Shown here piece after piece: positions 13,518 to 35,124 of a stretch of DNA of 64,000 nucleotides. Position numbers and translations under genes: made by a program. Every line of letters begins with the position of its first letter. Position 1 is the stretch's first letter. Source of the DNA: a virus; IMG/VR virus record IMGVR_UViG_3300020599_000003, positions 64,001 through 128,000 of that record; one strand, given 5' to 3'. The notes beneath the pieces were generated by a model. That model was given only the letters and a program-made list of their open reading frames with translations, did no database searches and was not told the DNA's origin.

Positions 13518-13874
13518 TCAGACTGCTACTGCATCAGAGTCCGTGATGAAGACCAGCTTGAGCTTCTTGGTCTTATCCACTTCGAACGAGAGTTCCCATC
13601 CCAACGAATTCAGGGTTTGGGCTAGTCTGATCATGGACTTGGCATTAATGGCGGGGCAGCGAACACCATTGAGCGTAACCTCTACAGTCTCACGCTGCGT
13701 GAGCCGGTCAGTGCCGCTGACAGGACGACGAGCCATCACGCTGATACCAATCATTTTCAGCATGGATTTAACTGCTGCCGCGTGTTCAGGTGAGACAGAA
13801 TCGGCATCGGCAACTATAGGTTTGCCAGTCAGGGCTGCCAGGATTTGCCTATCAGAGATCATAAGGGTCCTCAA
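13518..13874 (-). CDS. Hypothetical protein
   Basis: 118 aa; TTGA overlap with the protease stop; atypical codons. Confidence 0.55.
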   Translation of the reverse strand: MRTLMISDRQILAALTGKPIVADADSVSPEHAAAVKSMLKMIGISVMARRPVSGTDRLTQRETVEVTLNGVRCPAINAKSMIRLAQTLNSLGWELSFEVDKTKKLKLVFITDSDAVAV

Positions 13875-20202: not shown

Positions 20203-20748
20203 TCAACTGGTTTTTCTCATGAACTTCTCGACGCTCCATCCTTTGCCGAGAAGAACGATACGGACATCCTTACGTTGGGCTACCTTCGGGTTGATGTCCT
20301 GACCAAGAAACTTCAGGGTGTCCGAGTTGAGCTGCTTCACCAGGAACCACGGGTTGGTCTTGGCCAAGGATTGCCACAAGCGGTTCGCTGAATAGCTGTG
20401 GCGCTCACCCGAGATGAAGCAGTAGCCCTCGTTCAGCACCTGTTGATACAGACGTCGCATGAGCCCTCTGCCCCTGTACTCAGGTAGAAGGACACTGTGA
20501 GGGTTCACGATCTTGAAGTCGTCGAAGCCCCCGAAGCTGTTGGAGTAGCGCCCAATGACCTTGCCATCGTGGATGATGACTCGGTCGTCGTCACGCGTCC
20601 CCATGTCCTGGTAGAAGAACCCATCCCCGAGCGGCTTGAACCGCTTCGGGTTGAGGTCATCTTCCCAGACGTGCAGGTTCTTGACCTTAGTGTCCGGCAT
20701 CAGAGCCGTTGCGGACAGGCGCTGGGCGATGCGGCTGAGTGTGCTCAT
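20203..20748 (-). CDS. GNAT-like acetyltransferase with N-terminal IAxRL signal
   Basis: 181 aa from ATG 20748 (MSTLSRIAQRLSATA); acetyl-CoA motif A LLPEYRGRGLMRRLY; SANRLWQSL. Confidence 0.7.
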   Translation of the reverse strand: MSTLSRIAQRLSATALMPDTKVKNLHVWEDDLNPKRFKPLGDGFFYQDMGTRDDDRVIIHDGKVIGRYSNSFGGFDDFKIVNPHSVLLPEYRGRGLMRRLYQQVLNEGYCFISGERHSYSANRLWQSLAKTNPWFLVKQLNSDTLKFLGQDINPKVAQRKDVRIVLLGKGWSVEKFMRKTS

Positions 20749-21443
20749 ATGCGATATCCGTTGCCGTCGCTGGGGCGCGAACTGACCGAGGCAGCAGGCC
20801 AGATGCGTTTGTCGATCACCAGCTTGAGTTGCTCGGCGGTTGGTAGGCGATAGTGCGCGAGCGCAGGAAGCTCGTCGCAGCGTATGACGTAGGACAGATG
20901 CCACCGAGTTGGGTGGTCGATGGCGTCGTTGGTCAGACGGATCTGCGTCCGACGTGGATAGACTTCGACCACGTAGGCTTGGTCACGACGCTTCCAGCGG
21001 AAATGGTGTGACAGGAGAGCGTGAACCTGATTGGGCCGCACAGGCTCCAGAAGAGCATCCACCATGACCAGGAAGCCCTGACCGTTGAGGATGCTGAACT
21101 GCTTGGCCCGCTTGATATTTACCACCCTCAGAATCTTGCTGTTGTTCAGCCACTTGCTGAGTCTCATCTTCTCCGTGCGGAGGAAATTGATGATGCGCCC
21201 ATTGGCGTCAGCGCGGTTAGCGAACGCTGGCTTGCGAGTCTCGTCGCAGAGCTCCACAAAGGCTTGCACACATGCACGCCAGAGAGCCTTGGGAGGGGCT
21301 GAGGGGAACTTCTCCCGCACCGCGGTGACCGCCATACGCCATTCGGGAGCGCGGGCAGCGACGAAGAACGAGGGGATGATGTTGGGGTCAGGGGCAGCCC
21401 ACGGAGTGGCCGTCACCTGGGGCACGTAGAAGTTGAGTGCCAT
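20745..21443 (-). CDS. Hypothetical protein
   Basis: 232 aa; tightly coupled to its neighbours. Confidence 0.7.
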   Translation of the reverse strand: MALNFYVPQVTATPWAAPDPNIIPSFFVAARAPEWRMAVTAVREKFPSAPPKALWRACVQAFVELCDETRKPAFANRADANGRIINFLRTEKMRLSKWLNNSKILRVVNIKRAKQFSILNGQGFLVMVDALLEPVRPNQVHALLSHHFRWKRRDQAYVVEVYPRRTQIRLTNDAIDHPTRWHLSYVIRCDELPALAHYRLPTAEQLKLVIDKRIWPAASVSSRPSDGNGYRI

Positions 21444-21445
21444 CG

Positions 21446-22153
21446 TCAGCGAGCCCGAGCGAGACGAGCCAGCACCCGAGCAGTGATGTTCTCCATCTCA
21501 GGCTGGCGCTTGGTGACAGACGGAACCAGCGGACCGTCGTCGAGGGTGGGACCCTTGTCGAACGGCGTGTATGAACCGTCGCCCTCGGTGTCCTCCTGGA
21601 TCTCCGTGGAGTCCTTCGGGTCCAGACTCCCGTCGGACATGGTGACCCCCTTGTAGGTCATGAGGTCCTGGCCGATGTCTCCGGAGACGGAGCGCTCGTC
21701 GATGGACATATCCAGATCATCCACTCCGGGAGTCATGGCGGCCAGCAGACCAGCCTCGACAGTGTCGCCCTCTTCCTCGTCACCGAGAGCTTGCTCGTTG
21801 AAGGACTGAGCGTTCTCGTCCTCGACGAACTTCTGCTCCTCCGGAGGTTCAGCAAGGAGGGGCGCGTCAGGATCGTCCTGATCGGCATCGATGTGGTAGC
21901 CCTGCTCTTCGCGCTCGAGCTCAGACAGCATGCGATATGCCACAGCCTCCAGCGTCTCCTTGTCGGTGCCGCAGGCTTCGGCCAGAGAGTGGAATTGGGC
22001 ATCGGAGGGGGTGGGGTTGATCTCCAGGAACAGGGAGATCAGCTTCGAGTATTGTTCAAACATTTTGCGTCCTCGTGAGCGTACTTCGGATTCAGTGAAG
22101 AACCTGCCCGCCTGAGCAGCCTCACTGCGCAGCAGTTGCTGACTGATCGACAT
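21446..22153 (-). CDS. Hypothetical acidic head-type protein
   Basis: 235 aa from ATG 22153; acidic middle; C-terminal ENITARVLARLARAR. Confidence 0.7.
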   Translation of the reverse strand: MSISQQLLRSEAAQAGRFFTESEVRSRGRKMFEQYSKLISLFLEINPTPSDAQFHSLAEACGTDKETLEAVAYRMLSELEREEQGYHIDADQDDPDAPLLAEPPEEQKFVEDENAQSFNEQALGDEEEGDTVEAGLLAAMTPGVDDLDMSIDERSVSGDIGQDLMTYKGVTMSDGSLDPKDSTEIQEDTEGDGSYTPFDKGPTLDDGPLVPSVTKRQPEMENITARVLARLARAR

Positions 22154-22154
22154 G

Positions 22155-22469
22155 TTAGAAGGGGTCCTGGGTTTTTCGCTTGCCGCCGCGCTCCGCATGG
22201 AGATGGCCGTGGCGCTTGTTGTGGCAGGTATTACAGATGCAGGCAAGGTTGGACATGGAGGTCAAGCCACCACGAGAGAGCGGCTTGATGTGATGAACTT
22301 CAGTGGCGGGACTCTTGCACCAGATGCAGGTGTTGCGGTCGCGGAGGCGTACCCGCGCCGCAATCTCGTACCATCCGGCCTTCTGCTGTTGGCCGAACTG
22401 GTTCGTGTTGTAGTTGGCACGAACTATGTGCGAGACCCCCGACTTGTGGCGTCGGATGAATGGCTTCAC
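22155..22469 (-). CDS. HNH endonuclease (small, HK97 gp74-like; start uncertain)
   Basis: RDRNTCIWC...EVHHIKPLSRGG...NLACICNTCHNKRH. Confidence 0.88.
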   Translation of the reverse strand: MKPFIRRHKSGVSHIVRANYNTNQFGQQQKAGWYEIAARVRLRDRNTCIWCKSPATEVHHIKPLSRGGLTSMSNLACICNTCHNKRHGHLHAERGGKRKTQDPF

Positions 22470-22471
22470 GC

Positions 22472-22855
22472 TTACTTCCAGACGTTGATGGAACCGGCAG
22501 GGAGATCGTCGCCGGCAACCTGACCGCCCTTGACCTTGAGGATCTTCTTGACGAACCACTTGTTGTGGGGCCTGCCACGGATGTTGGTGAGGATCACGCC
22601 TTCCTTCACACCCTTCGGAGCCGAAGCTGAGTCGGACACGATGTAGGCGGTGGCCGGTGCGCGCATGCCGCCCGTGAGGCGCTCTTGCAGCACGACGAGG
22701 CTCTTGGCGCTCGGATACTTCTTGAGGATCTGGGCCGGAGTGCCACGACCGCCAGCAGGCATCCAGGCGAAATCGAGGACGGCACCCCGAGAGGGTGCAG
22801 CGGTCACGGAGGTTGCTTGCAGGCGAGCGGTGATGTTCTTCAGGATTTGGGTCAT
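22472..22855 (-). CDS. Hypothetical basic protein with ITARL signal
   Basis: 127 aa from ATG 22855 (GAGG RBS): MTQILKNITARLQATSVTA. Confidence 0.75.
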   Translation of the reverse strand: MTQILKNITARLQATSVTAAPSRGAVLDFAWMPAGGRGTPAQILKKYPSAKSLVVLQERLTGGMRAPATAYIVSDSASAPKGVKEGVILTNIRGRPHNKWFVKKILKVKGGQVAGDDLPAGSINVWK

Positions 22856-22856
22856 G

Positions 22857-24179
22857 TTAGTTTCCTCGTAGTATTGAGATCTTGTCGCCGATGGCATCCA
22901 TCTTCTTACCGATGGCGTCGGCCTTGTCCTGGATAGCTTGGCGCAACTTGGGGGACTTGACCGCACCGAACCACTTCTTGCGGAGCTTGCTGAGCAGAGC
23001 CTTCTCCTGTACAGCCAGTTCTTTCCATTGCTTGTGGAGAATCTTCAATGCTCGTATGCGACGGGGCAAGGAGTCCTGATAGCTGCGCTGGCCGATCTTC
23101 TGACGAATGTCCTCGACGTGCCGTTCGAGCTTCTTGCGGGTCTCAGGGTCCTGCTCCTTGCGGAGGTGCTTCGAAATCTCCTTGAGCTCAGCCATACCCG
23201 CGTCGTATTCCTTGCGCTTGTTGGTCTTCCCGAAGGCCAGATGCTTGAGCCGATCAGTGAACGTGGACTCAGGGTGCTCCTTGAGGTATTCCTCCTGCTT
23301 GGACTTGGCCCAGCCACGGAACGCCTCGTAGGTGGGACCAGCCTCGACCTGCGTAGGAGTAGAAGCCAGATAGCCACCCAGGGGAGCGACCAGGCGCGGA
23401 TCATCCAGGTCGGCACCCACGTCATGTACCTGACCCGATGCGCCGCCCCCGAATCCGAAGGAGCTCACCATGTTGCCAGTGGTACTCTCGCTGCCAAGCC
23501 CATAGGCGTCGTCTAGACGCCCTCCAGGACCGGAACTGCCAATCATACCATTGGTGTAGCGCGGATCCTGCGTGTTCTCACCGATGGTGGCGAAGTAGCG
23601 TCCCTGCGGAGGGTTCTGGTAGAACTCGGCGCGGAGCTCCTGATCTGCCGACACGTAGTTGGGGGCGATACCGTAGTCTTCTTCGAAGTACTCTGCACGC
23701 GCTTTGTCCAGCACTTGACGAAAGCGAGGGTCGCGGAGGGCCTTCTCGAAGTTGGGATGTAGAGGAGTCGGCGGGGTTGCTGACCAGCAGAAGTCGGTAT
23801 GCTCGTGGTTCAAGACAGGCTCGAACTCTTCGTGACACACACCCAGGAAATTGTAGTAGCTGAAGCCGGGGGAGTCGAAACGGTAGAACGGGTACAGGAC
23901 GAACTCGTCGATGTCGACCTGCCCCTCCTCCATGAACTCCCGCTTGATGGCCTGCACGATACTCTCGCCAGGATCGACCCCTCCACCAAGACACGCCCAC
24001 ACGTTCGGAGCGTCGCCAATGTTGGAGCGCTTCACGAACAGGAACCGGCCAGTGTCGGGGCAGTAGATGACCGCCCCTGCGGCCTTGCCAGTGGAGGCAT
24101 CCGAGCGCAGATGGTAGGGGATGTTGTCCGACGGCAGCTCAAGCGTCACCCGAGCGTCGCTCTTGTGGAGGGGGTACAT
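22857..24179 (-). CDS. Nudix hydrolase fused to unknown C-terminal domains
   Basis: Nudix box GGGVDPGESIVQAIKREFMEEG; LNHEH; Gly-rich linker; basic coiled-coil C-terminus. Confidence 0.85.
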   Translation of the reverse strand: MYPLHKSDARVTLELPSDNIPYHLRSDASTGKAAGAVIYCPDTGRFLFVKRSNIGDAPNVWACLGGGVDPGESIVQAIKREFMEEGQVDIDEFVLYPFYRFDSPGFSYYNFLGVCHEEFEPVLNHEHTDFCWSATPPTPLHPNFEKALRDPRFRQVLDKARAEYFEEDYGIAPNYVSADQELRAEFYQNPPQGRYFATIGENTQDPRYTNGMIGSSGPGGRLDDAYGLGSESTTGNMVSSFGFGGGASGQVHDVGADLDDPRLVAPLGGYLASTPTQVEAGPTYEAFRGWAKSKQEEYLKEHPESTFTDRLKHLAFGKTNKRKEYDAGMAELKEISKHLRKEQDPETRKKLERHVEDIRQKIGQRSYQDSLPRRIRALKILHKQWKELAVQEKALLSKLRKKWFGAVKSPKLRQAIQDKADAIGKKMDAIGDKISILRGN

Positions 24180-24189
24180 CGAGGCTCCT

Positions 24190-24492
24190 TTACTGAGGGG
24201 TGCGAGTGGGCTTGGCCGTCTTGGCCAGCTTCTTGGCGTCGTCCGGGGTAATGGTCATCACCTTGTTGATGCCGTGGTCTTCCGCCTGCACCAGACGGAT
24301 GTGCTTCCCATTGGATGAGGGGCGCACGCCGTAGACCTCGTTCTTGTCGATGACGAGCGGACCCCTGCTAGTTTGCAGAGTCAGTTTACCGCCTCGGTGC
24401 TGGAACCACTGGTATTCGTCCTCACCCTTGATGCGAGCCTCCAGTTGCGAGTGGACCTGGAGGCGAGCCGCGATCTTGGAGATAGTGTTCAT
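24190..24492 (-). CDS. Hypothetical small protein with IAARL signal
   Basis: MNTISKIAARLQVHSQLEA; 100 aa. Confidence 0.75.
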   Translation of the reverse strand: MNTISKIAARLQVHSQLEARIKGEDEYQWFQHRGGKLTLQTSRGPLVIDKNEVYGVRPSSNGKHIRLVQAEDHGINKVMTITPDDAKKLAKTAKPTRTPQ

Positions 24493-24773
24493 TTCGGCTT
24501 CTTCTTTTCCAGGAGGGATTTGGCGTGCTCCAGACGGCTCTTGTCCTCAGCGGACAGGTTATCACCGGCTCGGTTGATGTAAAATTGCAGCCTGGAAGAA
24601 GCCTGAGCGTAGTCCTCGGAGGCTCGCATCAGACCGTTGGCGATGTCTTGGGCGGAACGCGAGAAGAAGCCCTCCGGAGGGCTCCACTTCGTATCCACTT
24701 TACCCGACCACTTCTCAGCGGTGAGGGTGTTGGCGAGGGCGAGCCGCGCAGCAATGGTTCGGATTTGTGACAT
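24489..24773 (-). CDS. DUF3175-like protein with IAARL signal
   Basis: 94 aa from ATG 24773; KWS...ASSRLQFYINRAGDNLSAEDKSRLEHAK resembles the DUF3175 signature (MLxFYINRAGxNL) as recalled. Confidence 0.6.
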   Translation of the reverse strand: MSQIRTIAARLALANTLTAEKWSGKVDTKWSPPEGFFSRSAQDIANGLMRASEDYAQASSRLQFYINRAGDNLSAEDKSRLEHAKSLLEKKKPK

Positions 24774-24807
24774 AGTATCCTCGACGGGGCTTTCCGCCCC
24801 GGTTGAT

Positions 24808-25617
24808 TTACAGCACGTTGATGGGGACAATGACCGCAGCGGTGTCGCCGTTGTCTTCGTTGGTCGCCGTCAGGGAGATGGTGTAGCGACCGTAGGGGAT
24901 GTCTTCGTCACGCATCGACTCAGGCATGAGCTTGCCCTTGATGAAGTCGAAGATGTACGATTGGATATTCTGTACGACCGTGACGTCGTCGCTCCGGAAG
25001 CTGTCAGTGATCGAATCACCTTCCTGGCTGTTCCAGGAGTTGGCTGAGGCGTCGTACTCCAGCATCAGGTTCGGAGCCTGCTGACCACCGCTGTTGAGGC
25101 CAATGCTGAGGTCGATGGTGTAGTCCGACAGCTTGACGTTTTCGCCACGGCAGGCGACGCTGAATGCGAAGGCCCAGGCATTGCCATCCACATCGGAGCG
25201 AGACATCGTGTAGACGCCATTGGCATCCGAACTGACCGGAGCCGGGCTGTGTCGGTAGCGAGGGCTGATGCCAACCTGGATGGAGGCCGTGTTGCTGATG
25301 GCCCACTTGTTGACAGGGTTGCCCGAGCCATTGAGCATCCACTTGCCCTTGCCATCTAGGGTCGCATTGCTCCATAGAGTCCCGTTCGAGAAGGAGCCAG
25401 GGCTGAGCTGGCTCGCCAGAGAAACGGGCAGCACACTCGGGTATGCGAAGCCTGCGAACGCCTTGGAGATCTCGAAGGGCTGGCCGGATTGGTAGGCTTC
25501 ACTGGCAACGAAGGGCTGAACCCACCGGAGGTCCTCGATCGCGAAGGCATCGCCTTCAGTGACGGGGAAGCCAGATTCGCGCATCATCTTCTTGATTTCA
25601 GGATAGTACGATTGCAT
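24808..25617 (-). CDS. Hypothetical virion protein (beta-rich)
   Basis: 269 aa with GGAG RBS; Ser/Asn/Gly rich. Confidence 0.7.
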   Translation of the reverse strand: MQSYYPEIKKMMRESGFPVTEGDAFAIEDLRWVQPFVASEAYQSGQPFEISKAFAGFAYPSVLPVSLASQLSPGSFSNGTLWSNATLDGKGKWMLNGSGNPVNKWAISNTASIQVGISPRYRHSPAPVSSDANGVYTMSRSDVDGNAWAFAFSVACRGENVKLSDYTIDLSIGLNSGGQQAPNLMLEYDASANSWNSQEGDSITDSFRSDDVTVVQNIQSYIFDFIKGKLMPESMRDEDIPYGRYTISLTATNEDNGDTAAVIVPINVL

Positions 25618-25664
25618 GGAAACGCTCCTTGTATCTTGGCGATCGCCGATTGTGGAAGGACGTC

Positions 25665-26090
25665 TTAGGCGTAGCTCTTCGGCTTGGTAGCCGTGCCACG
25701 AGGTGTTCGAGCCGTTGACTTCGGGGTACGGGCCGTGGACTTCGGAGTCTTGGCTGTGCCCGGAGGCTTGGTGACGATGCTCTTGCCTGGCTTGATGGGC
25801 TTCTTCTTGCGCATCAAGTCCTTGGCCTTGTCGAGCTTCTGACGGTCAGCCGGGGTTGAATTACGCCCTGAACGGTTGTTCACGAAGTTGAGCTGGGACA
25901 TGGCCTTACCGTAGTCATACCGCTTCAGTAGCTCCTGTGAGATACGTGCCGGAGACTCCTTATAGAGCCCCTCCGGCGGCTTCTGGTCAGGGTTGGTGGC
26001 TCGGTACTTCTCCTTGACCTTGCGGGTCGCCTCCTTGGACCACTTCTTGTAAGCCTGGAGGCGGGCAGCAATCAGTGGGATGCAGGACAT
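25665..26090 (-). CDS. Second DUF3175-like paralog with basic repetitive tail
   Basis: MSCIPLIAARLQA; KKWS...PPEGLY...AMSQLNFVNNRSGRN...KLDKAK; C-terminal TAKTPKS/TARTPKS/TARTPRG/TATKPKS heptad repeats. Confidence 0.6.
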   Translation of the reverse strand: MSCIPLIAARLQAYKKWSKEATRKVKEKYRATNPDQKPPEGLYKESPARISQELLKRYDYGKAMSQLNFVNNRSGRNSTPADRQKLDKAKDLMRKKKPIKPGKSIVTKPPGTAKTPKSTARTPKSTARTPRGTATKPKSYA

Positions 26091-26175
26091 ACGGGCTCCT
26101 CAGGACTCGAGAGCCTTGATGGACTGCTCGGTCTTCTTGACTCCGGCGGCAGCCAGATCGCACTGACTGTGCTCC

Positions 26176-26183
26176 ATAAAATT
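26176..26183 (-). promoter_or_regulatory. Promoter motif variant (G)AATTTTAT
   Basis: Intergenic, 86 nt upstream of the 26090 start; preceded by a 14-bp palindrome. Confidence 0.5.
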
Positions 26184-26212
26184 CTCAACCTTGAGAGGTC
26201 GAAGCTTCGACT

Positions 26213-26536
26213 CTACACGCGGACGTTACCGCGATTGTCGAAGAAGCGGCCGGAGATGCGGCCGAAGCCCACGCCAGCCAGTTCCACATCCTCGTTGAAC
26301 ACGGCCACGGTGTTCCCGTGCTCGTCTTTCGCCGTGTGTTGAATCACCATCTTGGAGGGGTGGCGATCCGTCTTGAGACCGAGCTTCTTGCAAGCCGCCT
26401 GCCATTCCTTGAGGTTGCTGAAGCGGACCTCGGAGGTGGCAAAGCCAGCATCGGTTTCGACATCAGCGTCGACGGCAGTGGCACGCAGAGGGTTGGCTCG
26501 TGCGAGACGAGTAGTGATGGACTGAAGTACGGACAT
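26213..26536 (-). CDS. Hypothetical protein with ITTRL signal
   Basis: MSVLQSITTRLARANPLRATA; 107 aa. Confidence 0.75.
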   Translation of the reverse strand: MSVLQSITTRLARANPLRATAVDADVETDAGFATSEVRFSNLKEWQAACKKLGLKTDRHPSKMVIQHTAKDEHGNTVAVFNEDVELAGVGFGRISGRFFDNRGNVRV

Positions 26537-26574
26537 GCTTTATACACCTTGTAGTTTGAGAGGAGGGGCAGAGA

Positions 26575-28053
26575 TTAGAATGCGGCGCTGCGCGGGAGGC
26601 CTGAAGGGAAGCGACCCCAGATACTCGCGGGCGATACCGTTATACCAACAGAACCGATCGCACCTCGTTGCAGCGTGGAGGGATCAGCACTCCCATCACC
26701 CTGCGTGTTTCCTTTAATTATGAGGTTGGTTTTGACAGGCTTCAGGTCCTGATCCAGGCGCTGACGGATCTGATCCGCAGCTTGCTGGTAGGCGGAGGTG
26801 CGGTCAACGTTCAGGCTGATGTTGGCACCCTGATAGTCGAACGCCTTCTCAGCCTCGGCCAGTTCCTGACTTTCCAGGGCGAACATCTCGGCAGACTGCA
26901 GCCAGTACTCCCGGATGATGTTCTTGGCGTTCAGCATCGTGAAGCTGGTGAACTGGCCGGTCGCACCGTTGAAGTAGTCACGCCCACGGCGCAACCAGAT
27001 CATGATGGTCTCCGGCGGGAACAGCAGATCAGGTAGGCCATAGAGGCTGGTGCGAGCCTTGTTCACCCGAGCCTGAACATCGTTGATGGCATCCAGGATC
27101 GACGGGTTGACCACGTAGAGCTTGGCGTACTCAGTCGTCTTGGCTTCACCGGGGTTCCAGTATTGCCAGAGAATGACGTAAGGCTCCAGGCTAACGTTGA
27201 GACCTGAAGTATCCAGAGGCACGCGCCAGAGATACCCAGAGTCCACCCTCTGGTAGTCGTACACTGTCAGCGGAGCGCCCACAATGGTATTGTCGATAGA
27301 CAGCGAGACCTGCACGTTCTGCGGTAGGTAGTCCGTGACGAGGTCGATGGCTGCGGTCGTTCCCTGGAGCTCGACTGCGTCCGATGCGCCCAGAGGGGTA
27401 GTGGTCAAGCCGAGGATCGTGATGTTCTCAGCGACCGTCTGGCTCTGCACACCGTTCAGGTACAGCACGTACTGGATCTGGTACTTGCAGTCGAAGGACG
27501 TTGGCGGGATCGTGCTGGGGATGTTGATGACGCAGGAGGCTCGCACGATGTTGGACACGCCAGTCGAGTTTATGCGATACTCATAGGCCGTGCCTGCCGC
27601 TTGCGTGGTGCCATTGACGTCCAGCAGACGCCACTCCACGAAGCCACCAGCAGGATCCACATCCGGCGGGAAGACGAAGACGGCGACTCCAGTTGCGGCA
27701 TGGCCTGCTTCAATCGAGTCCACCAAATCGGCAAACTCCCCGGGATTCTGCGGAACCACGGGGAACAAAGTAGCCTCTGCGACAGTCACCGCCAGCAAGA
27801 CGATGATGGAGCGACCACTACTGAAGGTCAACTGGATCGGCGCGCCGTAGCTCACGCCGTTCATGCCACCCGACAAGTGGATGGTAGCGGTGCTGAGAGT
27901 GACGACGAGCTGGGGATTCGTGTTCGGGTAGGGCGGCTGCTGGAGGACCATACCAGTGACCGTCTCGCCCGGCTGAAGGTAGCGCGAGGTGTCGAACGGC
28001 ACGTCCGTATCAGTGCGCGGGTCCTTGAACAGGACGAAGGTCTGTTGCTTCAT
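26575..28053 (-). CDS. Putative neck/head-tail adaptor protein with N-terminal Ig-like domains
   Basis: 492 aa; FKDPRTDTDVPFDTSRYL N-terminal module; helical C-terminal region (FDYQGANISLNVDRTSAY) typical of adaptor proteins. Confidence 0.55.
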   Translation of the reverse strand: MKQQTFVLFKDPRTDTDVPFDTSRYLQPGETVTGMVLQQPPYPNTNPQLVVTLSTATIHLSGGMNGVSYGAPIQLTFSSGRSIIVLLAVTVAEATLFPVVPQNPGEFADLVDSIEAGHAATGVAVFVFPPDVDPAGGFVEWRLLDVNGTTQAAGTAYEYRINSTGVSNIVRASCVINIPSTIPPTSFDCKYQIQYVLYLNGVQSQTVAENITILGLTTTPLGASDAVELQGTTAAIDLVTDYLPQNVQVSLSIDNTIVGAPLTVYDYQRVDSGYLWRVPLDTSGLNVSLEPYVILWQYWNPGEAKTTEYAKLYVVNPSILDAINDVQARVNKARTSLYGLPDLLFPPETIMIWLRRGRDYFNGATGQFTSFTMLNAKNIIREYWLQSAEMFALESQELAEAEKAFDYQGANISLNVDRTSAYQQAADQIRQRLDQDLKPVKTNLIIKGNTQGDGSADPSTLQRGAIGSVGITVSPASIWGRFPSGLPRSAAF

Positions 28054-28084
28054 GTGCTTGGTCCCAACGTTGGGTATTAGCTGT

Positions 28085-28657
28085 CTAAAGGTACGGGTTC
28101 CGAAGCTTCCAGATCAACCGAAGAGAGGTCTTCGGTGAAGTCTGTGCCACGGTCTCGCGCTCCCACAGAAAGGAGGTCATAAGATTTGAAGACGGGAGTT
28201 CCCGAAGAATCTCCTTCAGCCAAACGTAGTTGAAGATTTGATTGAAGTTAGAGACCTCGTAGACATTCACGACGTTAGTGCGCGTGGAACCATTCTTGGC
28301 TCTGAACTCATCGAACAGGCCGATAGACCCCGCGAGGTCCTCCCAGTCATGCTTACGAAGCGAGGTGAATGCTGCTATCCGTTGGTGATTGAGTCGTGTG
28401 CCAACGGGGGCAAGCCAGTAGAAGGGCCCAGGGGCAGGGATGAACGGGACCGCCTTCGTGAGCGGACGAATTATCTCTGTCACGTAGGCAGCATTCTTGT
28501 TGACCGAACTCGGTGTATCAAAGTACGCCCCCAGCCAACGTATCGCCCGTACTACATCAGCGGGATAACTGGCCGCTGAGAGCTGAACCCAGAGGTCGTT
28601 CGTGAGGCGCGCAAGGATCCTACGCGTGATATGATTCATGGTGTCGATCTGTTTCAT
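28085..28657 (-). CDS. Hypothetical protein with ILARL signal (start 28657 or 28639)
   Basis: MKQIDT-MNHITRRILARL...VQLSA; 190 aa. Confidence 0.65.
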   Translation of the reverse strand: MKQIDTMNHITRRILARLTNDLWVQLSAASYPADVVRAIRWLGAYFDTPSSVNKNAAYVTEIIRPLTKAVPFIPAPGPFYWLAPVGTRLNHQRIAAFTSLRKHDWEDLAGSIGLFDEFRAKNGSTRTNVVNVYEVSNFNQIFNYVWLKEILRELPSSNLMTSFLWERETVAQTSPKTSLRLIWKLRNPYL

Positions 28658-28672
28658 GGTGTCGATCTGTTT
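28637..28672. repeat. Perfect 18-bp tandem duplication at gene start
   Basis: CATGGTGTCGATCTGTTT x2. Confidence 0.95.
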
Positions 28673-28688
28673 GATTAGAGAGTGCTTC

Positions 28689-28967
28689 TCACCAGTTGGA
28701 TTTGTAGCGGAAGAGGAGCTTCTCCCCTCCCATGGTTTTAGGGTAGCGCGGCTTCACACCACGCAGGGTGAGGCAGAGGTCCTCGGTCAGGTCCTTCACA
28801 GTAGCACGGCGCATATGTTCGCGGAGCTCTTCGACAAGCTCCTTTGCATCCTGGACTTCTTCCTTGTCTGCGATGCCGTGGTACTTCACATTCTGTAGGT
28901 TACGCTCTGCGTTGTGGAGATCGACTGCCAAATCCATCAGGAAGACGTGCCTGCCGTCGATCTCCAT
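28689..28967 (-). CDS. Hypothetical protein
   Basis: 92 aa from ATG 28967 (GGAG RBS). Confidence 0.6.
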   Translation of the reverse strand: MEIDGRHVFLMDLAVDLHNAERNLQNVKYHGIADKEEVQDAKELVEELREHMRRATVKDLTEDLCLTLRGVKPRYPKTMGGEKLLFRYKSNW

Positions 28968-28968
28968 G

Positions 28969-29184
28969 TCAGTCTCCGAGCAGGACCAGTGCGCGCAGGT
29001 ATGGGAGTATGCTCTTGTGCTCCTTGACGAATTGCGCCCACGCATCGGCGGGGTTCTTGGCATACACGGTCAGCGTGGAGGTGCCGTGGCTGTTCTTGTC
29101 GCCTGTGCGGACCTGGAACTGGTACTCCTGCTTCGGTACAGCCGACCGCAGCCGGTGCGCCACGCTGTTGATGATCTTGCTCAT
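28969..29184 (-). CDS. Hypothetical small protein with VAHRL signal variant
   Basis: MSKIINSVAHRLRSA; 71 aa. Confidence 0.7.
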   Translation of the reverse strand: MSKIINSVAHRLRSAVPKQEYQFQVRTGDKNSHGTSTLTVYAKNPADAWAQFVKEHKSILPYLRALVLLGD

Positions 29185-29185
29185 G

Positions 29186-29368
29186 CTAGAGCTCTCCTAC
29201 GAACTTGAACCCACCGAGCTTGCCTGAAGCGAGATCGGCGAAGTTGTCTCTGTACAGGCGCTTGGCAATCCTGCTAAATGCCTCGTTCTGATTAGCAGCG
29301 TCTTGCGCGAATGTGAGGGTGCGTGGACCAACCTTCAACTCGAAGAAGTAGGTAGTCTCAACACTCAC
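29186..29368 (-). CDS. Hypothetical small protein
   Basis: 60 aa; GTG start after AAGGAGG. Confidence 0.65.
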   Translation of the reverse strand: MSVETTYFFELKVGPRTLTFAQDAANQNEAFSRIAKRLYRDNFADLASGKLGGFKFVGEL

Positions 29369-29786
29369 CCTCCTTATCGGCTGCGGCGCGGGCGCGGAAG
29401 CCAGCCGCTGCAGTCAGGCGGGACGTAACATTCTTCAGCACGTCCGGCTTCATGTCCTTGGCAGGGGCGTCCTCAACCAGGATGTCCGTGACGAAGCCGT
29501 ACTGGTCGCACACGCAGTAGATCTTGGCCTGGAGGCGTTTCAGGATGTTGCGGAACACGAGCTTGTCGCCGTACTTGACCTTCTGGCGAGTCGGCCGCAC
29601 GTCCGCGCCGAACTTCAGGAAGGTAGCACCCATGATGGCCCCGTAGGACAGCATCTTCTGGGGTTCGATCAGGATGGCCTTCGGGTTGGCTGGGTCTTCA
29701 CCAGGCTCTTCACGAAGCTCGCACTTGATGTGCAGTAACTTGGTGATGGAGTCCGCGATAGCTTGAGCTTTCTGCTGGAGGTTCAT
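29358..29786 (-). CDS. Hypothetical protein
   Basis: 142 aa; coupled to its neighbours. Confidence 0.7.
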   Translation of the reverse strand: MNLQQKAQAIADSITKLLHIKCELREEPGEDPANPKAILIEPQKMLSYGAIMGATFLKFGADVRPTRQKVKYGDKLVFRNILKRLQAKIYCVCDQYGFVTDILVEDAPAKDMKPDVLKNVTSRLTAAAGFRARAAADKEGEC

Positions 29787-30232
29787 GGTATCTCGTCGCT
29801 CAGGGTGAGCTTGGTTGAGAGTTGTGTGCGGGCCTTGAGGTGCACTGTCAGGACCATTGCCATTGACTGGAAGTCCACGTCATACACTAGGCTGTCAGGT
29901 AGGCGCGCCCTCAGACGGATGCTGAGAAGTGTGCCGCTGGAGCCCAGACCCCACATGAGGTAGCCGAGGTCAGTGGGCTTGGAGAATAGAACCGATACAG
30001 TGTGGTTGCTGTTCTCCTCCTCTATGCTCTGCGTGAGGATGTGGACTTGGCCGAGGTCCGTGGCAAGGCGGAGTGCTGCGGAGTTCAACATCGCGATCCT
30101 GATGCGAGTCTTCGCAGCGCGCTCTGCTTCGGTTACTAGGGCGCGCACCTGAGCAAGGACGGGGTCAGTGACTTGTGAGCCCGCCGGAGCTCGCTTCTTG
30201 AAGCGGAGCCAGCGGAGCCATGCGCCCCGCAC
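29783..30232 (-). CDS. Hypothetical protein (start uncertain)
   Basis: 149 aa ORF in the operon. Confidence 0.6.
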   Translation of the reverse strand: MRGAWLRWLRFKKRAPAGSQVTDPVLAQVRALVTEAERAAKTRIRIAMLNSAALRLATDLGQVHILTQSIEEENSNHTVSVLFSKPTDLGYLMWGLGSSGTLLSIRLRARLPDSLVYDVDFQSMAMVLTVHLKARTQLSTKLTLSDEIP

Positions 30233-30236
30233 CCCG

Positions 30237-31478
30237 TTACTTCCCCTGGTTGAGGATGTGGACGATACGACGTAGCTGACGATCGTCGATACGGAAGCGC
30301 TCCTTGAAGAACTCAGCGTCTTCGTATGAGATGTCCAGCGGACCTGCCGTGCCGACCGACGTGAACACGATCTTGCGTTGGCCGGGCATGGAATCCATGC
30401 GCAGACGGGCCGTGCGCTGGTTCTTCAGCAGGCGCTTGACGTCGACGTAAAGCTCACTGCCAATCTTGCTGTAGTCATTCTTGGGGACCGCCTTCTTGAT
30501 GTTGAAGGTGATGGTTGTGCCCGAGACCTCGAAGGTGTCGATGAGATCTGCCACGCTGAACAGCGACTTGCTGATGTTGGCCGGGTCGTGCAGGAAGGCC
30601 AGCGACAGCGGTACTACGCCAAGCTCGGACGAGAACTGCTCCAGACTCAGCAAGTGCGCCACCGCCTTCACGGCCGAACCTGCCGAAGTTACTTCGGTCC
30701 CGTGACCCTGCTTGAGCAAAGAATTGGGAGTCACGTAGTCGTGTTCCAGGTAGACGTAGATTGCGGGGTCCACCTTGTTGTTGCCGACTACCCACTGGAC
30801 CACGATGTACAGGGCCGGAGTCACCGAGCCGTCATCGTTGATGGCGTCTTCCATCATCTTGTAATAGGTGAAGACGAGGGAGCCTTCACCCGTCACGCTG
30901 ATGTACAGGAAGTTCTGTGTGTTCTGGCAGGGGACATGTGCGTCGACCTCCTCGGAGATCGCGTCGATGTACTTCTGGAACGACTTCGGCACATGCTTGT
31001 TGGCCAGATCGCTGATGAAGCCGAGGCACTTCCGCAGCGCCTTGCCGACGCCCTTCTTGGCCTCGGCGATCTCACGGATCATGCCCTTGGCAGCGGGGGC
31101 GTCCTTGAAGCGAGTGATGATCTGGGACTCGACCGCTTCCAGCGTGCGGTACTTCTCGTGGAGCTCTTCAGCGAGCTTGTACTGCTTCTCGAGCGCGGCC
31201 TTGTTGGGTACAATCACGTCCACGAGATCGGGGTCCATGGTGCGCTTGAGCTTACGTAGGCGCGCACGAGCGTCATCGGCATCTTCATCGCGCAGGGTGA
31301 TGGTGAACGTTGAGTTGGACGCAGCCGACAGGCGCGTGGTGGCAGTGAGAGAGGAAGCGAGCAGCTTCTCTTGCTTGTTGACGAGCTGCTCGATCTCCTT
31401 GATCGAGACCTTGAGGTCCTTCAGGTAATCGCGATATCCTTCCAGATAGCGGAACTGAGGGATGTTTACTCCAGCCAT
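30237..31478 (-). CDS. Hypothetical conserved-looking virion protein
   Basis: 413 aa; coiled-coil N-terminal half; strong phage codon bias. Confidence 0.8.
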   Translation of the reverse strand: MAGVNIPQFRYLEGYRDYLKDLKVSIKEIEQLVNKQEKLLASSLTATTRLSAASNSTFTITLRDEDADDARARLRKLKRTMDPDLVDVIVPNKAALEKQYKLAEELHEKYRTLEAVESQIITRFKDAPAAKGMIREIAEAKKGVGKALRKCLGFISDLANKHVPKSFQKYIDAISEEVDAHVPCQNTQNFLYISVTGEGSLVFTYYKMMEDAINDDGSVTPALYIVVQWVVGNNKVDPAIYVYLEHDYVTPNSLLKQGHGTEVTSAGSAVKAVAHLLSLEQFSSELGVVPLSLAFLHDPANISKSLFSVADLIDTFEVSGTTITFNIKKAVPKNDYSKIGSELYVDVKRLLKNQRTARLRMDSMPGQRKIVFTSVGTAGPLDISYEDAEFFKERFRIDDRQLRRIVHILNQGK

Positions 31479-31511
31479 AGTAGGAGGGCTCCGAGTGTTG
31501 TACGTATTGGT

Positions 31512-31520
31512 ATTAAATTG
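31512..31520 (-). promoter_or_regulatory. Promoter motif variant CAATTTAAT
   Basis: One mismatch, 34 nt upstream of the 31478 start. Confidence 0.5.
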
Positions 31521-31532
31521 CTAGATAGAGTC

Positions 31533-31886
31533 TCAGTTGGCAGGGATGACGATTGCCCCCACACTGCGGTCAGACTCCTTCCACTTGATCTTGATGTCGA
31601 TGCTTGACCAGAACTCGGGGTTGAAGTTGCTGAACCAGAGCTCCTTCACCCTACGAACCTTGGCATAGCCGATGATCTTATTGATCAGCAGACGAGCATA
31701 ACCTCGGTAGCGCCGATCCTCGGGTACATAGATGTTCATGAGAGTCGGGCGCGAAGTCTCGTAGTCAGTGCCCACGTTCCATGGACAGTCCCAGTCCACA
31801 TCCGCGTGTGCGAAGTGCTGCTTGTCTGCCCATGCTTGAGTCTCCAACTCTGGAGTGCCGAGATCAACGAAGTAGGTGTCGATCAT
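31533..31886 (-). CDS. GNAT acetyltransferase
   Basis: LMNIYVPEDRRYRGYARLLINKII (motif A); ...NPEFW. Confidence 0.7.
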   Translation of the reverse strand: MIDTYFVDLGTPELETQAWADKQHFAHADVDWDCPWNVGTDYETSRPTLMNIYVPEDRRYRGYARLLINKIIGYAKVRRVKELWFSNFNPEFWSSIDIKIKWKESDRSVGAIVIPAN

Positions 31887-31891
31887 GATGC

Positions 31892-33115
31892 TCAGTAGGG
31901 CCTCCACTGGTAGCGCGGGCGTACTGCACGCTTGGCCTTCTGATGCTCGATGTTGCGAGTGATGAGCTCGGTCAACGCAGCGAGCACGGTCTTGTAGTCA
32001 GGATCTTCCGGCTCGGTGCGCTCGAACATGTCAGGCAGACCGTTGATGTTGATCCACTGCCAGCTATGGCTGCGCAGCCCGTCGCGGAACTGCGCATCGC
32101 TGATGAAGCTGAGCGCCTTCGGCCGCTTCGGGTTGAAGAACAGGTAGCCGTTGAGGCGCTCGCCTTCCTGGTTCACGTACAGGATCGGAACGGGTTCGGC
32201 CTTCACGTTGCTGATACTGTAGTACTTCTTGGTCAGGCCCTCCTTGGCCTCTTCCTTGCGGGTTTCAGCAGCTTCCTTCTGAGCGCGCTCCTGCGGAGTC
32301 ATGTACTCCACATTGTCGGTCGTGTCGTAGCGTTTAGGCTCCAGGCCGACCTTGCGCATCCATCCTGCCCACAGTGGGCCGTGTCCCTTATTGGCAGTCT
32401 CGCGGACCTTGTCGATCTCGGACACAGCCTGATGGCACATCTCGTGGAGGAAGACTTCAGCGAACACGTCGAAGCGTGCGTTGAACAGGCGCGGCGAGAT
32501 CATCAGCTCGCGGATGTTGTTGATGCCACCGTGCCGCCACAGGCCGCGCTTGCGCATCTGGATGCCCATGTCCCTGAGGAAGCCGAGGGTAGGCTCCTCC
32601 ATCTGGTTCTGGAACTTGTGCTGGTTCCAGTAGTGCCAGATCTTCTTCATGAAGTCGTGGCAGGCCGTGCGGGGATTGCCGAGGGCTTGGATCTTCTTGT
32701 ACAGATCGATCAGCTGATCGCTGGCCCAGGTCTTCTTGTCGACGTCGGGATTGTACGGCGGAGTGTCGACCGGAGGCAGGGGCTTCGGCGGCGTGCGCTT
32801 CTCCACCTTCTCGATGTTCTGGATCAGCACGCGCTTGCGACCTTCGTTGACGTAGATCGCGCCGAGGTTGGGCACGACCCATTGGATGCGCTTGGCGACC
32901 TTCTTGCCAGCGCCGAACGTTTTGTCCAGGATGAACTTGTTGTAATCCGTGTACTGGAGGCGGATCCAGTTGTCTTCCGGGTGGTCCTCGAACTTCAGGC
33001 CCGAGAAGCCGAGGGTGTGGAGGTAGCTAGTGGCCTTGTCCACATCGGCTTGCGATGCGACGATGGTCCGTCCAGGGAATGCGAACAGGTTATTTCCTAC
33101 ACAGATGTAGCACAT
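31892..33115 (-). CDS. SprT-like zinc metalloprotease with extra N- and C-terminal domains
   Basis: VFLHEMCHQAV (HExxH) followed by GHGPLWAGWMRKVG, the SprT signature. Confidence 0.85.
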   Translation of the reverse strand: MCYICVGNNLFAFPGRTIVASQADVDKATSYLHTLGFSGLKFEDHPEDNWIRLQYTDYNKFILDKTFGAGKKVAKRIQWVVPNLGAIYVNEGRKRVLIQNIEKVEKRTPPKPLPPVDTPPYNPDVDKKTWASDQLIDLYKKIQALGNPRTACHDFMKKIWHYWNQHKFQNQMEEPTLGFLRDMGIQMRKRGLWRHGGINNIRELMISPRLFNARFDVFAEVFLHEMCHQAVSEIDKVRETANKGHGPLWAGWMRKVGLEPKRYDTTDNVEYMTPQERAQKEAAETRKEEAKEGLTKKYYSISNVKAEPVPILYVNQEGERLNGYLFFNPKRPKALSFISDAQFRDGLRSHSWQWININGLPDMFERTEPEDPDYKTVLAALTELITRNIEHQKAKRAVRPRYQWRPY

Positions 33116-33219
33116 GAGATGTGTGATCCTCAGAATGCGCGACCGTCGCGGCGGTCAAATGAACAGGCACCGAGACGGATGGGGGCCTCCATCCCAGTCG
33201 TCTTCCACACCACGGAAGT

Positions 33220-33891
33220 TCAGCTTCTCGCGGTCTTCTTAGGCATGGTGTTCGTGGGAGATATCTTGAACCGCTTCATGAACTTCTCGAGGGTCCACCC
33301 CTTGCCGAGCAACACGAGACGTACCTCGTAGGAGTTAAGCTGCTGCTTGGTGAGACCCTCACCATGACCCAAGAACTCCGCAGGCTGATTGACGGGAACC
33401 CTGATTAGGAACCATGGGTAGGTGCGGCCGAGCTTCTCCCACATCATGTTGGCCCCAGGTGACTGGGTGCCTGACGACATGAAGCACATGCCGTGGTTGA
33501 GCGCCCACTTGTAGATAGCAGAAGCGTACCCCTTACCCTGTGCCCGTTCTGCAAATGTAGCGTGCGGCGTTAGTAGATTCTGGTAGCGCACTCTGCCAAC
33601 CCCAATAGCTTGGCGCTCGAACCTCACATAACCGACCGTATACTCTTCCTTTGATACAGGGTCAACTTCACGGACCAGGATGAGAGAGGTGGTCTTGGTG
33701 ATCGGATGTTGGAAGGTGACCAAGATCACGCCAGGAATGGCGGTGGTGATGCGCTTGATGGGCTTCTTCTCCTGCTCGGCGCGCCGGAGCATCTTGTCAC
33801 CAGCCCACAGATCTGCATATACGTCACGACTGCTCATGCCGAAGTCGAGATCCATGGCTCGGACCGTCTGTGCTGCGATTGCTTTGAACAT
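33220..33891 (-). CDS. GNAT-like acetyltransferase, paralog of 20203-20748
   Basis: 223 aa from ATG 33891; ERAQGKGYASAIYKWAL, QSPGANMMWEKL, LLGKGWTLEKFM. Confidence 0.7.
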   Translation of the reverse strand: MFKAIAAQTVRAMDLDFGMSSRDVYADLWAGDKMLRRAEQEKKPIKRITTAIPGVILVTFQHPITKTTSLILVREVDPVSKEEYTVGYVRFERQAIGVGRVRYQNLLTPHATFAERAQGKGYASAIYKWALNHGMCFMSSGTQSPGANMMWEKLGRTYPWFLIRVPVNQPAEFLGHGEGLTKQQLNSYEVRLVLLGKGWTLEKFMKRFKISPTNTMPKKTARS

Positions 33892-35123: not shown

Positions 35124-35124
35124 A

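Follow-up and report, generated by a model that had tools for sequence, protein, structure and literature searches.

In phage T4, the internal proteins IPI-III and Alt carry a capsid targeting sequence (CTS), which is removed by the prohead protease gp21. In giant phages, a gp21-like protease processes many head proteins, and many are ejected into the host; in phiKZ, 201phi2-1 and SPN3US, the propeptides of head and inner-body proteins are cut at S/A/G-x-E. To our knowledge, no common leader consensus has been described for propeptides of this type. The maturation and release sites of herpesvirus assemblin consist of (V/L/I)-x-A followed by S. Short peptides are also used by encapsulins, whose cargo-loading peptides anchor unrelated enzymes on the inner surface of a shell with the HK97 fold; these peptides are usually C-terminal and remain uncleaved.

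The window analysed here is a stretch of 64,000 nucleotides from the 177.8-kb genome of a phiRSL1-like giant phage. An earlier note on this DNA had described one N-terminal leader on eight ORFs, and all eight were recovered on the minus strand (starts at 20748, 22855, 24492, 24773, 26090, 26536, 28639 and 29184), with the common N-terminus M-x-x-I-x-x-I-A-A-R-L followed by an Ala-ending tripeptide. A ninth copy was found within the ORF 53128-53391, at window position 53346. The tagged genes, with the scores of their leaders in a profile search, were:

20203..20748, minus strand: GNAT-like protein, leader-tagged, 181 aa; leader MSTLSRIAQRLSATA, 15.2 bits; the Pfam GNAT match is weak
22472..22855, minus strand: leader-tagged protein of 127 aa; leader MTQILKNITARLQATSVTA, 15.6 bits
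24190..24492, minus strand: KMPT-N domain protein, leader-tagged, 100 aa; 16.5 bits
24489..24773, minus strand: DUF3175 protein (Pfam DUF3175), leader-tagged, 94 aa; 14.8 bits
25665..26090, minus strand: DUF3175 protein, leader-tagged, 141 aa; 20.1 bits; paralogue of 24489-24773
26213..26536, minus strand: leader-tagged protein of 107 aa; 12.9 bits
28085..28639, minus strand: leader-tagged protein of 184 aa; 11.8 bits; orthologue of Motura gp158
28969..29184, minus strand: leader-tagged protein of 71 aa; 15.7 bits
53128..53391, minus strand: protein of 87 aa whose Met lies about 15 residues ahead of the tag; 11.2 bits; directly after the portal gene

For the profile, 24 leaders were taken from this phage and from three cultured relatives. 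When the whole genome was searched, nine places were matched at 11.2-20.1 bits and the next-best match scored 6.3 bits, while the top and second matches of the reversed-sequence control scored 10.1 and 7.2 bits. Three further copies had been proposed, of which the one in ORF 53128 was retained; those at the C-termini of ORFs 21446 (-1.1 bits) and 29358 (4.8 bits) were noise. An encapsulin-type cargo peptide was rejected because the tag is N-terminal, has another consensus and finds its C-terminal look-alikes only at noise level; as in encapsulins, the shell is of HK97 type, and a similar mode of action is possible. A Sec or Tat signal peptide was also rejected, because the sequences, read directly, contained neither a hydrophobic core (10 or more residues) nor the twin-arginine motif RR-x-F-L-K and showed polar residues alternating with Ile, Ala and Leu.

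The bodies behind the leaders had been called unrelated. This was confirmed by BLASTP after removal of the first 22 residues, except for the two DUF3175 proteins (24489 and 25665), which were the sole paralogue pair. The protein at 33220-33891 is a paralogue of the GNAT-like protein but scores no leader. Pfam and PHROG searches with the 22472..22855 protein returned no match, and the 24190..24492 protein matched Pfam KMPT-N with an E-value of 4.7e-6 and 27.1 bits, slightly under the curated cut-off of 28.9. Like the T4 CTS, the tag is thus an N-terminal peptide of about 10-20 residues on unrelated proteins. Unlike it, the tag reads A-A-x-R-L-x-A and not MKTYQEFIAE, and the T4 consensus is absent from the family logo.

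The cultured phages phiRSL1, BcepSauron and Motura all carry the tag, and a scan of 36 IMG/VR loci, which include these three phages, recovered it in 23. Among the tagged phiRSL1 proteins are ORF120, 123, 124, 127, 133 and 210. The 36 loci gave 81 matches of at least 8 bits, compared with 6 in the reversed control; 79 of the 81 had the same orientation as the connector gene, and almost every match began at Met. The family-wide form was [I/L]-x-A-A-x-R-L-x-A-[small], in which a short amphipathic helix contains an invariant Arg-Leu pair, and the logo ended with L(+1)-x-A(+3, 59/78)-[ATSG](+4, 59/78). The family-wide site is therefore R-L-x-A-[small] directly behind the helix and not the later Ala-ending tripeptide of the earlier note, although [VIL]-x-A does occur at residues 11-22 in 7/8 leaders of this phage (read from the sequences; the chance of about 4e-4 is our own rough arithmetic for a motif picked post hoc).

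Identical tag residues used the same codon at a frequency of 0.33, compared with 0.35 expected from codon usage, and similar results were obtained for the relatives L011, L016 and L010. Because synonymous codons were randomised, it is the peptide that is under selection rather than the DNA or RNA. It is hardly credible, then, that the similarity is a recombination patch, an element for translation initiation or the remnant of a recent duplication, with a functionless peptide. Such an origin would suit the position of the copies at the beginnings of genes, in a region where genes turn over like cassettes, but it is contradicted by the codon test, by upstream DNA that has no common sequence (by eye), by the unrelated bodies and by the persistence of the peptide across contigs whose connector proteins are just 36-51% identical to that of the window.

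The identity at variable tag positions was 0.39 within genomes and 0.18 between them, a difference reached by 0 of 2000 permutations. The tag evolves in concert inside each genome, and every genome has its own dialect, which is carried by the cargo orthologues of that genome. Similar tagged DUF3175 proteins were found in BcepSauron (gp253, by eye), L010 and L011, each in its own dialect and with the domain (..KWS..) beginning right behind the tag. The phiRSL1 protein ORF210, which resembles the KMPT-N protein by eye, wears the phiRSL1 dialect, and Motura gp158, also tagged, shares 33.5% identity over 179 aa with the 28085..28639 protein. Across orthologues the tag has been gained and lost, as was seen for DUF3175 and for two genes that are untagged here:

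22857..24179, minus strand: Nudix fusion protein, 35-46% identical to the tagged Nudix proteins of L013, L011 and L018
30237..31478, minus strand: conserved module protein of 413 aa, with tagged orthologues in six related contigs

The six orthologues of the 413-aa protein carry the tag and a basic linker; a known fold was looked for in the 413-aa protein and none was found. Of the cargo cluster proposed earlier, the GNAT-like and DUF3175 proteins carry the tag. In this phage, Nudix and SprT are untagged, though Nudix orthologues in three relatives are tagged. A saccharopine-dehydrogenase/homospermidine-synthase-like enzyme is also among the tagged cargo of relatives. A clade-specific conserved protein (20745-21443) lies near the tagged genes; searches detected it in phiRSL1, BcepSauron and Motura, and in neither Y3 nor Aura.

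Scans of whole records placed all tag matches in head, portal or tail modules. Two genes are landmarks for these positions:

26575..28053, minus strand: head-tail connector protein (PHROG 17327, Pfam Gp77 adaptor), at the centre of the tagged-gene cluster
53388..55262, minus strand: probable portal protein of 624 aa, assigned only by comparing position and size with phiRSL1 ORF211 and BcepSauron gp251

Two seeming outliers were found to sit past the portal gene: phiRSL1 ORF210 directly, in the same slot as 53128..53391, and BcepSauron gp253 one gene further on. In some relatives, tagged genes sit between the sheath and tube genes. The earlier note had contrasted its packaging proposal with a motif equally frequent in early proteins; no tagged gene was found in the replication and early regions of the four whole genomes scanned. 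A modular peptide that is under selection, the tag is restricted to structural modules. As in T4, the tagged genes stand among late head genes; unlike T4, each genome has 9 to about 17 of them, in a dialect of its own.

An N-terminal, short peptide with a basic residue beside hydrophobic ones could also act as a degradation or regulatory signal, read by a host AAA+ or a phage protease and limiting the lifetime of late accessory proteins. This is very improbable: conserved host proteases would not predict genome-specific dialects, one of the significant copies is preceded by 15 residues, and such a signal gives no reason for the restriction to structural modules.

The head genes that bear on the fate of the tag were:

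13871..14665, minus strand: head maturation protease (PHROG 18299), candidate tag-trimming enzyme
11931..13448, minus strand: acidic scaffold-like protein of 505 aa, the top outlier of the genome for [LIVM]-x-A-[ASTG]
10097..11173, minus strand: major capsid protein, HK97-type, 358 aa, enriched in [LIVM]-x-A-[ASTG]

Pfam and PDB sequence searches with the head protease gave no match. Its AlphaFold model (pLDDT 80) matched T4 gp21 best (5jbl_A, Z 9.8, rmsd 2.5 A over 128 aa), followed by herpesvirus proteases (VZV, Z 8.9; HCMV, Z 7.0), and H126 and S184 were invariant. As modelled, the protease has the fold of T4 gp21 and herpesvirus assemblin, so that a head protease of gp21 fold is a further predicted likeness to T4. 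A 358-aa capsid protein of HK97 type with a separate 505-aa scaffold is a difference from T4.

The earlier note had listed [VIL]-x-A sites in several proteins. This plain motif carries little information, and in the Nudix fusion it was at chance level (8 observed, 5.7 expected). The sharper [LIVM]-x-A-[ASTG] was strongly enriched in the scaffold, with 18 sites compared with 5.2 expected (z 6.0, rank 1 among 196 ORFs), and in the capsid protein, with 9 sites compared with 3.4 expected, 7 of the 9 being within the first 74 residues. Both proteins were likewise enriched in three relatives, and the motif was conserved in all four phages at the capsid protein N-terminus and about 45 residues from the scaffold C-terminus; the four capsid proteins are not independent because they are homologous, and the enrichment could partly reflect Ala-rich helices. 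The bodies of the cargo were not depleted of the motif (37 sites, 41 expected). In the scaffolds and capsid proteins of the four phages, neither the T4-type [LI]-x-E (z -1.5 to -0.1) nor the phiKZ-type [SAG]-x-E (z -1.4 to 0.6) was enriched, and the family logo showed no conserved Glu or Asp behind the tag.

At its conserved end the tag reads L-x-A-[ATSG], which matches the motif enriched in the scaffold and in the N-terminal region of the capsid protein. A tag-end motif that recurs in these two proteins is again reminiscent of the T4 CTS, here by sequence alone, but the predicted cut is after Ala and not after Glu as in T4. The phiKZ-type system also cuts at Glu, and its motif is not enriched in the scaffolds of this clade. 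The predicted rule of hydrophobic-x-Ala plus a small residue, with a conserved site near the scaffold C-terminus, is instead like that of herpesvirus assemblin, whose sites lie in the scaffold/protease precursor and not in address tags on many cargo proteins. The proposal of an Ala-type code distinct from those of T4 and phiKZ thus agrees with the scaffold and capsid protein, but fits the leaders of this phage less well, as Ala stands at +3 in just 3/8. Three leaders (24190, 24489 and 28969) do not themselves contain the strict motif, and in 25665 it is present only upstream of Arg-Leu.

We favour the reading that the tag is a head-loading tag like the T4 CTS, probably trimmed after Ala, to which we assign a probability of roughly 0.55. 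The helix would dock on a phage-encoded receptor in the assembling head, which may be the scaffold core, the inner capsid wall or the portal, and any domain behind the tag would become enclosed in the prohead. The protease of gp21/assemblin fold would then probably cut after Ala, at hydrophobic-x-Ala followed by a small residue, a rule that it apparently also follows on the scaffold and on the N-terminal arm of the capsid protein. Once freed, the cargo (here the DUF3175, KMPT-N and GNAT-like proteins; in relatives also the Nudix and saccharopine-dehydrogenase/homospermidine-synthase-like enzymes) would remain inside the head until it is delivered to the next host together with the DNA. The reason for packaging a polyamine-type enzyme is not obvious, which counts against head loading.

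The missing strict motif in half of this phage's leaders would be accommodated if the tag were uncleaved and loaded the virion through the portal, connector or tail channel rather than the scaffold core, giving ejection proteins stacked at the DNA exit. In three phages, tagged genes cluster near the connector gene and also occur immediately behind the portal gene, and some relatives have tagged genes between the sheath and tube genes, which points the same way. Nevertheless, gene order is weak evidence of physical contact, and this route, which we regard as improbable, leaves the small-residue pair after L-x-A and the motif enrichment in scaffold and capsid protein unexplained.

Any peptide-groove interaction would likewise show a short amphipathic helix and an invariant Arg-Leu pair. 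The tag might serve as a helix for docking or oligomerisation on a partner other than the prohead interior (a phage assembly chaperone or ATPase, the large helicase encoded within this module, or a host protein that is conserved); accessory enzymes would be gathered at one site of the infected cell, and the tagged proteins would never enter the virion. Metabolic cargo such as the Nudix, GNAT and saccharopine-dehydrogenase/HSS-like enzymes, which needs cytoplasmic substrates, would suit this arrangement, as would the several clade-specific conserved proteins of unknown role nearby, for example that at 20745-21443. We consider it doubtful, because tagged genes are all in late structural modules with none in the replication and early regions of four whole genomes, the dialects speak against a conserved host target, and the tag end coincides with the motif enriched in head-protease substrates.

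Extended to the whole phiRSL1/Sauron/Motura clade, head loading would amount to a programmable packaging code, which we put forward tentatively. It would combine a tag of 11-20 residues, whose dialect co-evolves with a genome-specific receptor, with an Ala-specific protease of gp21/assemblin fold, and would load exchangeable small enzymes (DUF3175, KMPT-N, GNAT, Nudix and homospermidine-synthase-like) into the head. According to PMC7824862, phage polyvalent proteins (Iyer et al. 2017, PMC5512222) are injected and contain GNAT, ADP-ribosyltransferase and nucleotide-signal-targeting enzymes; as a separate point, the paper mentions SprT-like and ArdC-like metallopeptidases of jumbo phages. GNAT, Nudix and SprT genes likewise lie in or around the present cluster; polyvalent proteins are fused giant proteins, unlike the separate small genes here, each with its own tag. 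By analogy, the two may be equivalent. Roles of the cargo in host takeover or anti-defence are guesses from domain names.

If the tag does load the head, sequence alone would list the proteins injected by a whole group of giant phages of Ralstonia, Burkholderia and Achromobacter, hosts that include plant and opportunistic pathogens. Host takeover and counter-defence would begin with the listed proteins, and a first biological context, that of injected factors, would be available for DUF3175 and KMPT-N. The T4 scheme of an address tag and a head protease would have been reinvented in a non-T4 lineage with a herpesvirus-like Ala rule, and it would offer orthogonal packaging tags for the engineering of phage capsids. 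The cultured phages phiRSL1, BcepSauron (with its relative Matilda) and Motura allow the tag to be tested directly.

We consider, with a probability of roughly 0.55, that the N-terminal leader shared by eight ORFs of the window (the tag) is an address for head loading akin to the CTS of T4, with trimming probably occurring after Ala. The window is part of a single 177.8-kb contig (bases 64001–128000), and a megablast comparison of this region with the phage collection gave no match. The capsid protein (358 aa) showed 50–55% identity to its counterparts in the Ralstonia phage phiRSL1, the Burkholderia phages BCSR5, BcepSauron and BcepSaruman, and the Achromobacter phage Motura. Every gene discussed lay on the minus strand, and the order of transcription was as follows:

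33894–35135, minus strand: conserved 413-aa protein
33891 down to 28085, minus strand: insertion-rich stretch
26575–28053, minus strand: head-tail connector protein (PHROG 17327 and Pfam Gp77)
15628–20106, minus strand: helicase of 1492 aa, after further small genes
13871–14665, minus strand: head protease (PHROG 18299)
11931–13448, minus strand: acidic scaffold-like protein
10097–11173, minus strand: capsid protein, preceded by a virion structural protein

This backbone order was the same in phiRSL1, BcepSauron and Motura. The portal-annotated gene sits elsewhere (ORF211 in phiRSL1, gp251 in BcepSauron), and by position and size only, 53388–55262 is the candidate portal counterpart here. The helicase, whose gene separates the connector cluster from the protease gene within the head module, is conserved (phiRSL1 ORF129, BcepSauron gp088 and Motura gp182) and may be a packaged DarB-like protein.

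As an earlier note had stated, eight ORFs (20203–20748, 22472–22855, 24190–24492, 24489–24773, 25665–26090, 26213–26536, 28085–28639 and 28969–29184) begin with the leader, and their sequences confirmed all eight starts. A profile built from 24 leaders (these eight and those of phiRSL1, BcepSauron and Motura) was run over all reading frames of the whole genome. Nine places were found at 11.2–20.1 bits, namely the N-termini of the eight ORFs and a ninth site, 15 residues inside ORF 53128–53391, which had also been noticed before. The best match below these nine reached 6.3 bits, and the best and second matches in reversed sequences were 10.1 and 7.2 bits. The C-terminal copies claimed in 21446–22246 and 29358–29786 scored –1.1 and 4.8 bits, within noise. 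The proteins had been called unrelated; after removal of the first 22 residues this was borne out for the eight bodies apart from 24489–24773 and 25665–26090, which are related and are both DUF3175 proteins. No match to any of the eight cargo proteins was found in PHROGs, nor to 28085–28639 in the ESM Atlas.

Several observations were made on the neighbouring genes. Two GNAT-like paralogues, 20203–20748 and 33220–33891 (35% identity), flank the cluster; the former is tagged, and the latter begins MFKAIAAQTVRAM and gave no tag score. The conserved family of 21446–22246 (including L002:9479–9931) combines an N-terminal domain with an acidic tail and is located just upstream of the helicase in 4/4 phages. 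In this phage and BcepSauron its members finish with a tag-like helix, A-R-L or R-R-L, whose score here was below significance; the family could be an adaptor or cargo. An HNH endonuclease ORF (22155–22559) would share 88 nt with the 3′ end of 22472–22855, a tagged gene, if it began at the first GTG, so the real start probably lies further in; in phiRSL1 (ORF122) and Motura (gp179), HNH genes were present in the same region.

The motif search over the genome and its relatives, which the earlier note had proposed, showed that the tag is clade-wide. It was found at the start of phiRSL1 ORF120, 123, 124, 127 and 133, and is carried by BcepSauron gp091, gp077 and gp075 and by Motura gp168, 170, 171, 174–177, 197 and gp158–164. 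In phiRSL1 it was also found at an internal Met of ORF112 (L001:378) and at a Met preceding the annotated ORF126 start (L001:9008), so both starts are probably mis-annotated in NC_010811.2. The profile scan of full records gave 9 places in phiRSL1, 4 in BcepSauron and 9 in Motura, and the matches in these complete records were confined to structural modules; that the leader is a degradation tag seems highly unlikely. Inside phiRSL1 ORF141 (L001:25386), a tag-like sequence of 7.8 bits, near noise, was observed ∼107 residues before the end. By eye, the C-terminal part of ORF141 resembles the free-standing tagged gp077 of BcepSauron, so ORF141 may represent a fusion, or else two separate genes annotated as one.

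A scan of IMG/VR with a single connector protein found nothing, and a scan with aligned connector proteins yielded 36 related loci, of which three were the cultured phages themselves. On these 36 loci the profile gave 81 matches of at least 8 bits versus 6 in the reversed control; 79 of the 81 were in the same orientation as the connector gene, and almost every one began at Met. The complete records of Erwinia Y3, Pseudomonas Aura and PaBG, and Xanthomonas PhiXhv-12, more distant phages that also have a homologous protease, contained no match to the profile.

Two apparent outliers in the full records adjoin the portal, phiRSL1 ORF210 directly after it and BcepSauron gp253 one gene on, and this slot corresponds to 53128–53391 here. 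A rival reading, in which the tag loads proteins by way of the portal, connector or tail channel and stays uncleaved, is improbable. The cargo of the slot differs between phages: an unknown 87-aa protein here, a protein similar to the KMPT-N protein 24190–24492 in phiRSL1 (ORF210, L008:2378–2698, by eye) and a DUF3175-like protein in BcepSauron (gp253, L009:2321–2590, by eye). The slot is adjoined by the conserved protein 52679–53131, which is similar to phiRSL1 ORF209; the arrangement looks like cassette exchange.

The logo of 78 distinct leaders read M-K-[I/L]-[N/Q/E]-A-A-x-R-L-x-A-[A/T/S/G]. With the conserved Arg-Leu pair as reference (Leu at +1), Ala occupied –3 in 69/78 and +3 in 59/78 leaders, a small residue occupied +4 in 59/78, and conservation stopped after +4. 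Each genome used its own version of the tag, or dialect (L-numbers denote related loci):

MKIEAAxRL[KR]A: L010, L011 and L041
MKVKLNAAxRLAA: L039
MxIQAxARLxA: Motura and L025
MIVNAKKRL: L031–L033
M-x-x-I-x-x-I-A-A-R-L: this phage

Identity at variable positions was 0.39 within genomes and 0.18 between them, a difference reached in 0/2000 label permutations. The dialects are most simply explained if each co-evolved with a putative receptor from its own genome. Phyletic profiling for such a receptor was applied to 20745–21443, which was present in the three phages that have the tag and missing from two that lack it, a weak indication. The partner might also lie outside the capsid, the tag being its docking helix; this is less probable than head loading, and we regard it as rather unlikely.

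It is the peptide that is selected, and not the DNA. Where the same residue occurred in two leaders of one genome, the same codon was used in 33% of cases, versus 35% expected from codon usage. The observed and expected values were 31% and 32% for L011, 30% and 33% for phiRSL1, and 33% and 32% for L010. Those of L039 (35% versus 27%) and Motura (42% versus 33%) exceeded expectation, and some nucleotide-level similarity is therefore left in these two. The randomised synonymous sites make continuing gene conversion an unlikely source of the dialects. A DNA- or RNA-level origin of the tag similarity was ruled out by the codon test, which contradicts a nucleic-acid-level feature and leaves it with a negligible probability. 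No shared sequence was seen by eye in the DNA upstream of the leaders, the promoter and terminator scan of 15.5–35.4 kb was at chance level, and, judged by coordinates, the majority of tagged genes touch or overlap the preceding gene.

The tag is modular and is attached to varied proteins. In this phage, BcepSauron, L010 and L011, the DUF3175 proteins are tagged in the dialect of their own genome, and the domain (..KWS..) begins directly after the tag; 28085–28639 and its orthologue Motura gp158 are likewise both tagged, each in its own dialect. A conserved 413-aa protein (30237–31478) is untagged here and in Motura, and carries the tag and a basic linker in six related contigs. It had no match in the PDB, and only uncharacterised proteins of related phages matched in BFVD. 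The Nudix protein (22857–24179) is untagged here, and its orthologues in L013, L011 and L018 (35–46% identity) are tagged. The Nudix and SprT proteins of this phage had been proposed as possible cargo, for which the tag gives no support. Pfam searches of the 78 tagged proteins found DUF3175 four times, Nudix three times, and GNAT, KMPT-N and a saccharopine-dehydrogenase/homospermidine-synthase-like enzyme once each, the others having no match. This last enzyme (L010:8449–9897, 483 aa) has the tag directly before its Rossmann fold; phiRSL1 reportedly encodes a working homospermidine synthase (PMC9992855). Effector roles of the cargo, taken from domain names, are guesses; GNAT and nucleotide-targeting domains have been noted in injected polyvalent proteins (PMC7824862).

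The protease had no sequence match in Pfam or PDB. Its AlphaFold model (35 sequences, pLDDT 80) matched T4 gp21 best (5jbl_A, Z 9.8, rmsd 2.5 Å over 128 aa), with the proteases of VZV (Z 8.9) and HCMV (Z 7.0) coming next, and H126 and S184 were invariant. The tag end L-x-A-[ATSG] was widened to [LIVM]-x-A-[ASTG] after P-V-V-A-T was seen at the capsid protein N-terminus, so the motif is partly post hoc. The scaffold contained 18 such sites versus 5.3 expected, a number reached in 0/1000 shuffles within 20-residue blocks; four permuted control motifs gave 5–6 sites. Among 196 genome ORFs the scaffold had the highest rank (z 6.0), with the capsid protein in third place (z 2.9); 7/9 sites of the latter lay within the first 74 residues. 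The enrichment recurred in phiRSL1, BcepSauron and Motura (scaffolds, z 3.1, 2.5 and 2.0; capsid proteins, z 4.0, 4.7 and 2.6, which are not independent because these proteins are homologous in all four phages). Ala-rich helices may account for part of the enrichment. None was seen in the protease or in the structural protein next to it. A [VIL]-x-A-[AS]-L site ∼45 residues before the scaffold C-terminus was conserved in 4/4 phages. Residues ∼12–70 of the scaffold hold a duplicated motif, [ST]-[LT]-H-[FY]-x-N, also conserved in 4/4 phages, with the second Motura copy degenerate.

Herpesvirus assemblins cut after Ala. These results would fit the same specificity in the present protease. R-L-x-A, however, occurs in only three leaders of this phage, and in the others the Ala-ending tripeptide described earlier is found as [VL]-x-A at residues 15–22. 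Cargo bodies did not avoid the motif (37 sites versus 41 expected). A-T-E is frequent in the phiRSL1 leaders, and A-A-T-E-Y occurs in the capsid protein of that phage. Glu-type cleavage was nevertheless rejected: Glu/Asp was not conserved across the tag family, and neither the T4 motif [LI]-x-E nor the phiKZ motif [SAG]-x-E was enriched in scaffolds and capsid proteins.

No description of the tag was found in the literature searched. Several virion proteins of PaBG are reportedly processed, and a preprint on Matilda presents proteomics of an infection time course (PRIDE PXD070006) without virion or N-terminal analysis. What is new here is the lineage, which is not T4-like and has cultured members, the tag sequence, its genome-specific dialects, and statistical support for an Ala-type cleavage rule.
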